From Escherichia phage CharmingMan, in the sequence record PP925830.1: 40,665 bases of DNA; one strand, written 5' to 3'. Under the pieces are notes generated by a model, which saw only the letters and a program-made list of their open reading frames with translations, did no database searches and was not told where the DNA came from. Below, piece after piece: positions 1 through 3,465 of the stretch; the first letter of the stretch is position 1; every line of letters starts with the position of its first letter. The translations under genes and the position numbers were made by a program.

Positions 1-510
1 ATGATCCACCAGCGAGTAGCACGGATAGACCACTGCGCCGCCATAAGCATCACCCACTGCATAATCGGCAGGCTTACTGCTATCCCATCGAGACAACACG
101 CGGTTGATATGATGTGGAGGTACGCTATAGCACACCCCGTGTATCAGTCGTGGCAGCGTGATGTAGTCAGCCTGAGCCTTATCAGCAACAATCAGCCGTT
201 CGGCTATCTGCATCTGATACTGAGGCGGTCGACCGGTACCGAGATAAAAGCTCAGCATGTCGTCAGGAAAGCGGGTCAGCCAGTCGACCACCAGCTCGGC
301 AAACCAAGGAACGGGCATCGCGTCGTCTTCCAGCACCACTACCCGGCATGGTTGGCAGGCAGCCCACTCAAGCGCGCGTCGATGATTCCAGTTCGCGCCG
401 TGGTTACCGTCATCAATCAGCAGATGAGCATCCAGCAACGTGGCAAGACGTTGCGCATGACCTATGCGAGAGTGATGGCCGACCACCACAAACTTTATGT
501 CTTCAGCCAC
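1..510 (-). CDS. Putative nucleotide-sugar transferase-like protein, partial (C-terminus beyond window start)
   Basis: Minus-strand frame open for 170 codons from GTG at 510-508 (GGAG 7 nt upstream) to position 1, no stop. Begins VAEDIKFVVVGHHSRIGH with acidic LIDDGN and VVLEDDA motifs. Track ORF 1-582(+) judged antisense shadow. Family assignment tentative. Confidence 0.4.
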   Translation of the reverse strand, partial: MAEDIKFVVVGHHSRIGHAQRLATLLDAHLLIDDGNHGANWNHRRALEWAACQPCRVVVLEDDAMPVPWFAELVVDWLTRFPDDMLSFYLGTGRPPQYQMQIAERLIVADKAQADYITLPRLIHGVCYSVPPHHINRVLSRWDSSKPADYAVGDAYGGAVVYPCYSLVDH

Positions 511-524
511 CAGCGAATCTCCAA

Positions 525-548
525 TAAAAAAGCCGCGCTATGGCGGCT
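525..548 (-). terminator. Hairpin plus T-run on minus strand (AGCCGC-N6-GCGGCT then TTTTTTATT)
   Basis: Forward 526-531 is an A-run followed by GCCGC (532-536) / GCGGC (543-547); on the minus strand this is a stem followed by 6 T. Sits 16 nt upstream of the GTG at 510. Confidence 0.35.
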
Positions 549-668
549 ACTGTCTGAATATCAGGGTGTTGCTTCGCGTTAACCCTGGTTAAGGTAAGCA
601 TTCAGCCCGTCAGTGGTGGGACACTGGCGCATTCAATGCGGAGGGATGGCTGATTACCTTCGATAAGG

Positions 669-935
669 ATGTACTTAATGGATAATAATGAATTATTTGA
701 TAAGTTGTTCACCTTGGAACTACAGGTTGGTTTTCTTATCCCTAAAATGATAAAGGTGCTTGATGGGTTAGCAGGGGATAATAAGGCGTCCACTTACCTG
801 ATTGCCGAAATGGAAAATATCATTAAACAACTGCCAAATACCAAAGCATCGCATGATGACAGGTTCACTAAGGCAGCTGAGGATGCCTTGGCAACGGTGA
901 AGCGCTCTTTAGACAAGCAGCCCAATCAAGAATAA
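669..935 (+). CDS. Hypothetical small protein, opposite-strand AT-rich moron (true start may be ATG 678)
   Basis: 88-codon ORF on the strand opposite all neighbours, visibly AT-rich, AAGGA upstream, followed by a hairpin + T-run at 958-990. No recognisable motif, no signal peptide. Confidence 0.4.
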   Translation: MYLMDNNELFDKLFTLELQVGFLIPKMIKVLDGLAGDNKASTYLIAEMENIIKQLPNTKASHDDRFTKAAEDALATVKRSLDKQPNQE

Positions 936-957
936 ATTCTTTTAACTCATTTATTTC

Positions 958-990
958 AAGCGTCTCTTTTTTATGAGGGGCGCTTTTTTT
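958..990 (+). terminator. Rho-independent terminator after the 669-935 gene
   Basis: AAGCGTCTC (958-966) pairs with GAGGGGCGCTT (975-985) with two G-U pairs, loop about 8 nt, then T-run to 990. Confidence 0.45.
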
Positions 991-1053
991 GAGCCCAATG
1001 CCAACATTCTTCAAATTAGCAGTGCGAATGTCATAAACCATTAAGACCTCCTT

Positions 1054-2526
1054 TCACTTATGTTTCCACCAGGCATTTTCTTTGCCGATGCCATCAGTTT
1101 TAAACACGGTATGCACGAGAGGGCCGGTGACCAGGCGGTCAGTGAATGACTGCGCGACAATACCGAACGCCAGCATGTCACCCACCGCAGCGACAGCCTG
1201 TTCTTTCCTCCAGAAACGATAACTCTCGATCCGGTAGTAAAGACGGATGATGCCGTGAGCGAACGCCATTACATCATCGCGGGTACCACCCAGCAGCCCA
1301 GCGTTAAGCATCACATCGTTGCGGTGCGCTTTAATGAACTCCTGATAGATGCTCTCCGGGTGATTCTGCTTTGCCCAAGTATCGGCGTAGGTCTTTGGTT
1401 CTGAACCGACGTACACCTTTCCGGGCTGCATTTCTTCCCACGGCGCGCGAAGCATTTCGACATCGGTACCATCTGTACACCAGACGAACCGGTACTCAGG
1501 GTGATCTCGCAGGTGCTGCCAGATGTGCAGCCAGCGACGAAAGTAGACATTCATCTTCACGTCAGGTACGCGGTGAAGTTCAACATCTGCCGGGACTGTC
1601 TGCAGTTCATCCACCAGCGCGATACGTCCACACTGCCGGAGTGATGCGGCCCATTTAGCCAGCATGTCAGGCGAGGCCGTCAGTTTGGTACCGCGCTGGG
1701 GGTCAGGCTGACTTGTAAGCAGCGTTGTGATTACCGCGTCGCGCTGCTGGCGGTATTCAACGTAACCAGTAAATCCGGTATCACGCCGTTCGTTGTGGAT
1801 CTTCACGTTACGTTCCACCAGCGCCTGGCGGTCTGGCCTCGGCACTGAACGCTCTACCGCTTCATGCTCATCGAGAGAATGAATCAGCTTTTCTGAACCG
1901 ACCACATCACCGTAAGCCCACGTAGTCAGTCCTGCGTTATGGATGCGCAAGGCGAGATCGCTGTGCTCGTACATGCCACGACCATAAACCGGATCGAAAC
2001 CTCCAACCTTCTCGATAGCGCTACGGTGGTAATACAGCATCACGCCGCGCTGCCCGGTGTAAGCGATGTGCTTATCATCCCGGTACAGGACCGCCATATC
2101 CTTCAGCTTATTCGTCCCTGCCAGATCGAGAAACTGGTAAGCCAGGTGCGGTTCGGGTGATTCGATGTATGGAAGGTGCCAGTTATCGGCGATGGGCCAG
2201 GCATCATCATCCCACAGAAAAAGATGCTCGCACCCGGCATCCATCAGGGCTGACAGGCTGGCGTTCTTCGAAGCAACAATGCCGAGTGAAGTTTCATGGC
2301 GAAGCATCTGCACGCCGTGGGAAACTACCGCTGCAGGTTTTGAACCATCATCTACAACCACCACCAGCGCGCCGGCGGGAAGATGCTTCATGTGCTGCTC
2401 GAGTGCCCGTTTTAAAACGTCTGCGCGCTGATGTGTTGAAATGGCAATGCCGATCCGTGAAGAAACGACGCTGGCTGGAGCGTATGGGACACCTTCAATA
2501 GTGACCTGCATAAAACCTCCAGCCAT
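1054..2526 (-). CDS. Glycosyltransferase family 2 (GT-A fold) domain protein with about 250-aa C-terminal domain of unknown function
   Basis: N-terminal IGIAISTHQRADVLKRALEQ...GALVVVVDDGS then LFLWDDDAWP (DxD-type acidic motif) and GGFDPVYG...EHSDLALR, the classic GT2 pattern. Start abuts the stop of 2527-3465 (coupled). True start may be the internal Met of MQVTIEG. Confidence 0.7.
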   Translation of the reverse strand: MAGGFMQVTIEGVPYAPASVVSSRIGIAISTHQRADVLKRALEQHMKHLPAGALVVVVDDGSKPAAVVSHGVQMLRHETSLGIVASKNASLSALMDAGCEHLFLWDDDAWPIADNWHLPYIESPEPHLAYQFLDLAGTNKLKDMAVLYRDDKHIAYTGQRGVMLYYHRSAIEKVGGFDPVYGRGMYEHSDLALRIHNAGLTTWAYGDVVGSEKLIHSLDEHEAVERSVPRPDRQALVERNVKIHNERRDTGFTGYVEYRQQRDAVITTLLTSQPDPQRGTKLTASPDMLAKWAASLRQCGRIALVDELQTVPADVELHRVPDVKMNVYFRRWLHIWQHLRDHPEYRFVWCTDGTDVEMLRAPWEEMQPGKVYVGSEPKTYADTWAKQNHPESIYQEFIKAHRNDVMLNAGLLGGTRDDVMAFAHGIIRLYYRIESYRFWRKEQAVAAVGDMLAFGIVAQSFTDRLVTGPLVHTVFKTDGIGKENAWWKHK

Positions 2527-3465
2527 TTAACGCTTTATTGCATTGTGAATAGAACCGCCGGGACGCACTTCTTTCCGCAAATACTGTTCGATTTTTTCGC
2601 TAATAAGGCGGCCTAATACTGTCTCATCGCAAATGGCTGGCACCTTGAGAGACATTAATTCATCCACCATCTCCTCGGTGTACTCTGTTGCCTCAGGGGT
2701 AAGATAACTGGAAACTACAGCATGAACTTTTTCGCGAATTGTTTTATCCGCTCCATCAACATTGATACGCATGTTGCAGTTGTACGTAATGTGGCCGCCG
2801 GTATCAGAATCGACTTTTGCGCTAACGGCAGTGTCTGGTTGAATGAAAGCATCCTTGATAAATACCCGTCCACCCTTCATGGTAAATGGGGATAAATCAG
2901 CAAGCGCCTTGCCAAATTCCTTCGTCAAACGTCTGTGCTTGATGTATTCCACGGCATTACGCATTTCGTCTGGCGTATAGCCTCCTTCAATAGCTACCCA
3001 GCGATCAGCCAAGAAAATCACCGCTGTTTTATCTGCTGGAAATCCGCTAAATACCTCATTGGACCTCTGCTTTGCTTCATCAAGAGCGTTAGCGATCAGT
3101 TTCTGTCTCTTCATATCACTACTGATTTTGTGACGTGGAAGGGTGTAAACAGCCGAGAGATCACCTAATGCAGCATCATGCATTTTTGTAGGCTCTTCGA
3201 TCTTCCCCATTCGCCAGGCCACAGAACCATCAGCCCGATGGCCAACGATTTCACCATTGCCGTAACTGACGTGGCCACCTTTCGGTTTGCGCTTATCTTT
3301 CACCCGTAGATGTTCAGGGAAGAAAGAAGCATCACCCGAAACTGTATGGCGGCGACCTTTCAAATCGTAGTGTGCGCTACCTGCAGGACTTTTGAGAATC
3401 AAGCCGTCGTCGGTCATCGTTACGCGCATGCCCAGCATCGCCTGCTGCAGCGATAAATATTTCAT
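2527..3465 (-). CDS. Hypothetical protein (312 aa), first gene of the sugar-transferase cassette
   Basis: Long minus-strand ORF with AAGGAAA-type RBS context upstream, coding-like composition, abutting the downstream GT2 gene. No motif recognised. Confidence 0.55.
   Translation of the reverse strand: MKYLSLQQAMLGMRVTMTDDGLILKSPAGSAHYDLKGRRHTVSGDASFFPEHLRVKDKRKPKGGHVSYGNGEIVGHRADGSVAWRMGKIEEPTKMHDAALGDLSAVYTLPRHKISSDMKRQKLIANALDEAKQRSNEVFSGFPADKTAVIFLADRWVAIEGGYTPDEMRNAVEYIKHRRLTKEFGKALADLSPFTMKGGRVFIKDAFIQPDTAVSAKVDSDTGGHITYNCNMRINVDGADKTIREKVHAVVSSYLTPEATEYTEEMVDELMSLKVPAICDETVLGRLISEKIEQYLRKEVRPGGSIHNAIKR

Follow-up and report, generated by a model that had tools for sequence, protein, structure and literature searches.

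A glycosyltransferase pair predicted to glycosylate the capsid and tail tube of the HK97-like Escherichia phage CharmingMan

The late region of Escherichia phage CharmingMan (PP925830.1) encodes two glycosyltransferases (GTs), one of 490 amino acids (aa) and a smaller one of 195 aa. We consider it highly probable, on sequence grounds, that they constitute a phage-encoded cytoplasmic system that acts late in infection and O-glycosylates the major capsid and major tail-tube proteins of the phage itself. A virion-protein target is favored because the enzymes are homologous to those of mycobacteriophages, because exactly the capsid and tail-tube proteins end in -Gly-Ser (-GS), and because this terminal tag co-occurs with the GT pair in related loci. 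A preliminary description of this DNA had listed virion proteins, phage DNA and host surface structures as targets that could not be told apart; of these, the evidence now clearly favors virion proteins over the other two. The analyzed stretch, hereafter the window, is 40,665 bp long and represents the complete, circularly permuted genome of an HK97-like temperate phage.

The small GT gene lies on the minus strand and starts with GTG at position 510, preceded by GGAG 8 nt upstream. It is cut at the window start (junction 1/40665) because the window is a circular permutation of the whole genome. Codons 1–170 occupy positions 1..510, while codons 171–195 and the TGA stop follow over the circular junction (40588..40665). 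The gene, once thought to run off the window, is thus complete at 195 aa (510..1, then 40665..40588), and its last 25 residues are identical in the full-length homologues P0271/P0272. The protein matches phrog_854 (E 6.7e-73; label "glucosyltransferase"), and its nearest relatives are Enterobacter prophage proteins. By similarity it is a homologue of gp110 of phage Che8 (35% identity over 192 aa, E 1e-24 in blastp; 95% coverage of gp110 in tblastn) and of gp38 of phage Corndog, which tblastn recovered together with several hundred actinophage proteins. Che8 gp110 and Corndog gp38 have been named as two essential glycosyltransferases for capsid glycosylation (PMC12363180), and the same was described for the capsids of Che8 and Rita (PMC11256854); in mycobacteriophages, virion glycosylation shields the particles from antibodies (PMC12363180, PMC11256854).

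An alignment of the small GT with enterobacterial, jumbo-phage, Mycobacterium and Gordonia phage members shows invariant N42-H43 and E61-D62-D63 (within VVLEDDA); further invariant columns are S87/Y89/L90/G91, H124, D149 and S166/V168/H170. Four of 11 family members match Pfam PF01755 (GT25; best E 1.2e-7), and the family profile aligns weakly to mimivirus glycosyltransferase R655 over the same signature (E 0.09). We tentatively assign the small GT to a divergent GT25-like family. Distant relatives with 32–35% identity were found in metagenome-assembled genomes of Oscillospiraceae (beside a relative of the 490-aa GT) and Phycisphaeraceae (L188, L191), hinting that the system may reach phages of Firmicutes and Planctomycetes.

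The larger enzyme (1054..2526, minus strand) matches phrog_1579, "glycosyltransferase", end to end (E 1e-250). Its N-terminal part, approximately aa 1–255 (1762..2526), is a GT2-like GT-A domain with D59-D60, a DXD motif formed by D106-D107-D108, and E187-H188. D59/D60 (VVVDDGS), D106/D108 (DDD), G175/G176 and E187/H188 are invariant in alignments of 80 and 84 sequences. The family profile matches the GT-A domains of chondroitin polymerase, TagF, heparosan synthase and polypeptide GalNAc-transferase (E 1.7e-6 to 7e-3), in all cases via the N-terminal half. Pfam PF00535 hits this domain below its gathering score (17.6 vs. 23.3 bits, E 0.0038), and some homologues have precomputed PF00535 or PF02709 matches. 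Single-sequence searches of the PDB returned no match for either GT or for the neighboring 312-aa protein discussed below.

Relatives of the 490-aa GT are widespread. In the phage collection it shares 41–43% identity at 99% coverage with GTs of cluster F mycobacteriophages, e.g., Fruitloop gp99, and closer relatives are present in Serratia/Klebsiella jumbo phages. A library of 1.8 billion proteins contains 246 clusters of relatives at E < 1e-30, nearly all of them about 450–490 aa long. Near-identical DNA of the gene is rare in E. coli (3 of the 5,426 complete genomes), but relatives at the protein level abound in Enterobacter, Citrobacter, Klebsiella and Cronobacter. In the 300-kb Serratia/Klebsiella jumbo phage KpYy_2_45 (L167, 1490–3588), a 499-aa open reading frame (ORF) is followed by a gp110-type ORF 44% identical to the small GT of the window.

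The AlphaFold2 model of the 490-aa GT, built on the 84-sequence alignment spanning 35–90% identity, is confident (predicted local distance difference test score, pLDDT, 93.5; predicted template modeling score, pTM, 0.82). Its best Foldseek matches are enzymes with two GT-A domains, namely the heparosan synthase PmHS2, the chondroitin polymerase K4CP, COLGALT1 and LH3, aligned over 435–566 columns; the single-domain matches are retaining GT6 enzymes. The C-terminal half, approximately aa 256–490 (1054..1761), belongs to no Pfam family, and scans of ten C-domains of the family gave chance-level matches only. It possesses the family motifs TDxTDVE and LLNAGxxGG and the invariant residues D352, D355, N408, G410, G413 and H489. 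The acidic motif (D352, D355) follows a strand formed by residues 345–351, in a Rossmann-like order of strands and helices. Judging by the model, the protein is composed of two tandem GT-A domains, its C-terminal half being a second transferase domain. The preliminary description had assigned the N-terminal half to the GT-A fold and family 2, in agreement with the profile matches and the confident model, and had called the C-terminal domain unknown, a label that the model and the fold search now replace. The motifs it had quoted from this protein and from the small GT are present and fall on conserved columns of the family alignments.

The predicted substrates were recognized by their C termini. 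The six frames of the window contain 177 ORFs of 60 aa or more, of which only two terminate in -GS, namely those of the major capsid protein (...FSTGAGS) and the major tail-tube protein (...WGTAAGS). The capsid protein (34459..35670, minus strand; 403 aa) contains the Pfam domain Phage_capsid at aa 130–397, and the hexapeptide S-T-G-A-G-S (aa 398–403; 34462..34479, minus strand), a predicted glycan acceptor tag, extends beyond the domain end. Likewise, the tail-tube protein (32494..32946, minus strand; 150 aa) contains Phage_TTP_13 at aa 11–146, just beyond which lies the putative tag A-A-G-S (aa 147–150; 32497..32508, minus strand). An exact copy of this tail-tube protein is present in Enterobacter genomes. 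An IMG/VR locus (L059) is related to the window, not identical to it; its capsid protein is about 95% identical to that of CharmingMan.

The same endings are found in actinophages encoding homologous GTs. The capsid and tail-tube proteins terminate, respectively, in ...NKTGS and ...YSDGS in both Che8 and Fruitloop, in ...PLVGS and ...IKGDS in Corndog, and in ...LPQGS and ...GFGGS in MosMoris. These tagged, GT-positive phages span three unrelated clusters. In L5, which is without a homologue of these GTs, the two proteins end in ...DATEA and ...VPEG.

We scored GT genes and C termini in 160 IMG/VR loci gathered via the window capsid protein and HK97 gp5. A capsid ending in -GS or -TS was found in 108 of 109 GT-positive loci vs. 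4 of 16 GT-negative ones (Fisher p 1.3e-12), and a tail tube with such an ending in 94 of 100 vs. 3 of 14 (Fisher p 5.9e-9), the loci counted not being phylogenetically independent. At least two of the six GT-positive tail-tube misses are mis-picked ORFs. The GT pair itself is conserved in at least 94 related loci, and cultured phages possessing it are mEp390, HK542, ECP1, Fostie and ENT39118.

Closely related proteins can differ at their C termini. Window-type capsids that are 87–89% identical end either in ...STGAGS (GT-positive) or in ...TVPAPAGA (GT-negative), and HK97-type capsids end in ...FSSGS or ...FSAD. HK97-type tail tubes exist as two alleles, one with a C-terminal Ig-like domain of about 90 aa and the other with a tail of 7 residues that terminates in GS (L100, L089 and related loci); the short -GS allele accompanies the GT genes. 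A 147-aa tail tube of the latter type (...GKPENIESGS) is 93% identical over residues 1–145 to the 234-aa gp12 of HK97, the extra part of gp12 being the Ig-like domain. A second tail-tube family shows ...PKVVTP or ...PKAAA vs. ...PKEQPGS or ...RKTEAGS. We read these pairs of sequences as a tag switch that recurs within several lineages.

HK97 itself (L086; 4028–5185, 6733–7437 and 37672–38400) has the tag on gp5, carries a KilA-N gene in the slot where its relatives hold the GT pair, and has a tail tube ending in the Ig-like domain. In IMG/VR, the pair accompanies the majority of natural HK97-type capsid genes. HK97, the laboratory paradigm, may be a GT-less variant of a normally glycosylated lineage.

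In a blind test, the loci were gathered via the small GT, with one genome per species, yielding 18 loci from Enterobacterales genera as well as Oscillospiraceae, Mycobacterium and Phycisphaeraceae. Seven of nine GS-ending ORFs encode major head proteins of three other PHROG families (phrog_247, 617, 10) or else major tail proteins (phrog_584, 158). The set is limited to 18 loci by the use of a single peptide pattern, and the enrichment figure (14 of 671 ORFs with a GS ending) is indicative only. Two prophages of this set have the capsid gene directly upstream of the 490-aa GT gene.

The genomic setting of the pair bears on its target as well. The TGA stop of the small GT gene overlaps a possible ATG (TGATG) of a gene for an HNH endonuclease of the terminase-adjacent type (40238..40603, minus strand; phrog_144), which lies directly downstream and precedes the terminase genes. 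This overlap ties the small GT gene to the packaging and head operon. On the minus strand, terminase, portal, protease, capsid, tail and J genes follow in this order (40079 down to 22116); after J come a tail fiber, the integrase and early genes, then a repressor, replication genes and a Q-like antiterminator (7624..8406, minus strand; phrog_127, E 5e-100). Beyond Q lie a TerB-like moron, then holins, endolysin and Rz/Rz1 (down to 3661), and then the GT region. The position claimed for the region, in the late operon between lysis and packaging genes and far from int-att, is therefore correct, the integrase gene (17461–18774) being about 15 kb from the GT genes. The three minus-strand ORFs described there are also found as reported: a 312-aa ORF at 2527–3465, the 490-aa ORF abutting it at 1054–2526, and the small GT gene from the GTG at 510. 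Their description as three co-directional genes holds for strand and order and requires amendment for the two GT genes, which are not contiguous and are separated by an AT-rich insert containing an 88-aa gene on the opposite strand.

A different role for such genes would be lysogenic conversion or superinfection exclusion, with GTs expressed from the prophage modifying a host surface glycan such as the lipopolysaccharide (LPS) core, the O-antigen or the capsule. Prophage-encoded GTs often modify host surfaces, the slot is rich in morons with others adjoining the pair, and the relatives of the small GT fall in GT25, a family that includes LPS-core transferases. The N-domain of the 490-aa GT also gives weak NCBIfam matches of the EPS type and to mycofactocin GTs. 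However, no transmembrane-like segment is present in any of the three proteins (maximal 19-residue Kyte–Doolittle means of 1.05–1.48), in accordance with the preliminary description, which had also correctly excluded a GtrABC set. Both GTs are predicted to be soluble, and no partner resembling GtrA, GtrB, GtrC, Wzx or Wzy accompanies them. Moreover, the same gene pair occurs in Mycobacterium and Gordonia phages, whose hosts lack LPS; the small GT gene reaches into the HNH/terminase operon, and the pair directly follows the capsid gene in some prophages. Modification of the host surface would also leave unexplained why a terminal -GS that tracks the GTs is found on exactly the capsid and tail-tube proteins. 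We consider this explanation unlikely.

Glycosylation of phage DNA against restriction, as in T-even phages, has general precedent, and the "glucosyltransferase" label of phrog_854 is the only other point in its favor. PHROG scans of 20 ORFs, comprising the larger early, replication and integration genes, revealed no hydroxymethylase, deazaguanine or other base-hypermodification gene; hence a base with a hydroxyl group for sugar attachment would be lacking. Homology links the two GTs to phage enzymes that glycosylate proteins, and PADLOC produced no match for the two GTs, the 312-aa protein or the 88-aa protein, with no anti-defense signal. A DNA target thus appears very unlikely.

Several points weigh against virion glycosylation in CharmingMan. 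The small GT of the window has itself no Pfam match at E up to 5, its predicted model is poor (pLDDT 54), and the fold search was uninformative. Apart from the dependence among the loci counted above, the association has exceptions in both directions: HK97 gp5 ends in -FSSGS, yet HK97 carries no GT; the tag occurs without GTs in loci L013, L029, L159 and L084; and GTs occur with an untagged tail tube in L016, L150 and L166 and with an untagged capsid in L081. The literature searched contains no report of glycosylated virions in enterobacterial phages or of a function for these genes, and RefSeq phage records label them in general terms, as glycosyltransferase or glucosyltransferase. In mycobacteriophages, Freeman and colleagues (2023) reportedly placed O-linked glycans at the C termini of capsid and tail-tube subunits, and reportedly saw little evidence for glycosylation in other phages; papers citing that work give no detail on the attachment site. 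To our knowledge, virion glycosylation has been demonstrated only for mycobacteriophages. When ten phages of other bacteria were stained, no glycoproteins were found (PMC12894461).

The exceptions would also suit another cytoplasmic target, such as a small molecule or a different phage or host protein, or a decaying system in which the -GS tails are unrelated or vestigial. The -SSGS terminus of HK97 shows that the tail can persist without the enzymes, and one locus (L020) has truncated GT genes. On the other hand, neither window enzyme has lost any residue that is invariant in its family, the pair is conserved across enterobacterial prophages, a 300-kb jumbo phage and actinophages, and the tag association spans several unrelated capsid and tail-tube families. 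This explanation seems to us unlikely. The exceptions fit a mosaic system whose tags and enzymes come and go independently of each other, and the tag alone does not prove modification.

If the capsid and tail-tube proteins are the targets, the following course of events can be proposed. Q-dependent late transcription would yield both enzymes together with the head and tail proteins, presumably with late read-through of the hairpins at 3584–3603 and 531–548. The small GT25-like enzyme would recognize a short tail with a free -Gly-Ser carboxy terminus on both substrates and transfer the first sugar from a nucleotide sugar, most likely to the terminal serine. We suppose the small GT to be the initiating, protein-recognizing transferase because it is the sole component common to all versions of the system, while the partner enzymes differ; the terminal serine is the presumed acceptor because it is the sole residue common to nearly all tags. 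The 490-aa enzyme, with its two different GT-A domains, could then lengthen the glycan by at least two linkages. An alternating or repeating glycan polymer can be imagined by analogy with the structurally closest two-domain polymerases, and this is speculation. The resulting particle would expose a glycan on each of about 400 capsid subunits and on all tail-tube subunits. We speculate, from work on mycobacteriophages and from the allele swap, that the glycan shields the particle from antibodies or proteases, or provides adhesion in place of the Ig-like domain.

A broader proposal, on which we are evenly divided, is that a free C-terminal -Gly-Ser represents a portable "glyco-tag" operating across phyla and read by gp110/GT25-like enzymes. 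Glycosylation would then be switched by swaps of the terminal residues, the glycan would be an alternative to the Ig-like domains of tail tubes, and the partner enzyme would polymerize a repeat. In that case, particles coated with sugar would be produced by many enterobacterial prophages of the gut, and a minimal cytoplasmic protein-glycosylation kit working in E. coli would consist of the tag and two genes.

Glycosylation of the CharmingMan virion, if real, would in turn extend this modification to Gram-negative lambdoid phages. The same system would be predicted in HK97-like phages and prophages of Enterobacter, Citrobacter, Klebsiella, Cronobacter and, rarely, E. coli. A terminal -GS on capsid and tail-tube proteins would serve as a rule for finding substrates, and this rule would account for the recurrent swap of the HK97-type tail-tube allele between an Ig-like domain and a 7-residue tag. 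The practical bearing extends to the immunogenicity of phages in therapy, their persistence in the gut and cytoplasmic glyco-engineering in E. coli.

The insert separating the two GT genes (511–1053) is about 540 bp long and AT-rich (GC 0.43 vs. 0.55–0.56); the 490-aa gene lies 543 bp upstream of the small GT gene. The 88-aa ORF of the insert (669–935, plus strand, opposite to the GT genes) matches phrog_18136 (E 1.7e-39), whose function is unknown, and is followed by a terminator-like hairpin on the plus strand (958–985); the minus-strand hairpin at 531–548 also lies in the insert. Bases 511–695 share 82–86% identity with parts of the Salmonella phages ES18, Oslo and 29485 that are annotated as terminator or minor-tail region. 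The same slot contains an HNH endonuclease gene in mEp390 and is empty in Fostie, in which the GT genes overlap directly.

The 312-aa gene (2527–3465, minus strand) abuts the 490-aa ORF (TAAATG). We rejected it as a member of the cassette, since the gene, whole or in part, was seen in only about 5 of the more than 100 GT-positive related loci, the protein has only four partial tblastn matches in 50,697 phage records, the GC content is lower (0.47), and a terminator-like hairpin (3584–3603) after the lysis cassette separates it from Rz1. It is a variable moron in its own right and shows no conserved partnership with the transferases. Of the sugar-transferase cassette of three genes originally proposed, two genes are thus retained. 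The protein matches a PHROG of unknown function, and no exact copy was found in the protein collection or among the records; NCBIfam gave nothing useful for it, the 88-aa ORF or the small GT. In the region of residues 148–229, a short segment resembles the C-terminal region of J, the tail-tip protein of CharmingMan itself (33% over 67 aa, pairwise E 3e-5); the same stretch matches J of HK97 (E 4e-4) and, weakly, Pfam Phage_Tail_Tip (E 0.006), so the protein might contain a J-like fiber segment. Its relatives in Fostie, FSL SP-016 and Fraca are mosaic.

Other genes of the neighborhood include a second HNH endonuclease (6844–7329, minus strand), located downstream of Q between Q and the lysis genes. 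The TerB-like "tellurite resistance" moron (5633–6058, minus strand; phrog_632, E 3e-64) lies between Q and the holins, as it does in Fostie. A 96-aa ORF (3462–3752, minus strand), for which PHROG gave no match, is out of frame with the Rz1 lipoprotein gene (3661–3891) that it overlaps and is probably spurious.

Among known systems, the GtrABC cassettes resemble the CharmingMan pair in being phage-borne glycosylation genes of Enterobacteriaceae. Unlike the window proteins, which are predicted to be soluble and encoded in the late operon, GtrA, GtrB and GtrC are membrane proteins encoded by int-att and acting on O-antigen; no Gtr family match was obtained for the window proteins in Pfam, PHROG and NCBIfam scans. 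The enzymes of chlorovirus PBCV-1 (A064R and others) and of the mimivirus fibrils are likewise virus-encoded cytoplasmic GT-A proteins, some of them multi-domain, that glycosylate virion proteins. They belong, however, to giant viruses of eukaryotes and produce N-linked or fibril glycans, and the likeness is at the level of fold only.

The two-domain polymerases K4CP of E. coli K4 and PmHS2 of Pasteurella share 10–17% identity with the 490-aa GT, and the TM-scores are about 0.3, low because the orientation of the domains differs. With members of CAZy GT25 (PF01755; the LPS-core beta-glycosyltransferases Lic2B and LpsA, the collagen galactosyltransferase COLGALT1), the small GT shares the signature G-x-x-N/S-H ... 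V-L-E-D-D. COLGALT1 O-glycosylates a protein side chain. In contrast to these enzymes, the small GT is much shorter (195 aa), and in place of LPS or hydroxylysine its predicted acceptor is a serine at the C terminus of a folded virion protein.

The closest counterpart is the mycobacteriophage system (Che8 gp108–110, Corndog gp36–38; Freeman et al. 2023, Cell Host Microbe 31:1216). The small GT is homologous to gp110/gp38, the 490-aa partner is homologous to GTs of other cluster F phages, and in both systems the two substrates end in -GS (-DS in the Corndog tail tube). The location agrees as well: the GT genes of Che8 and Fruitloop are found at the right end of the genome, just before HNH, cos and terminase, an arrangement that recurs in CharmingMan, mEp390 and Fostie; the order in Fruitloop is gp99, two small genes, gp102 and the genome end. 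The differences are the Gram-negative enterobacterial host and the lambdoid, HK97-like temperate phage, in which the system is predicted from sequence, and the partner enzymes: gp108 and gp109 of Che8 are unrelated to the 490-aa protein, and the glycan is therefore probably different. By every sequence criterion tested, the CharmingMan system is a member of the gp110-type virion glycosylation system.

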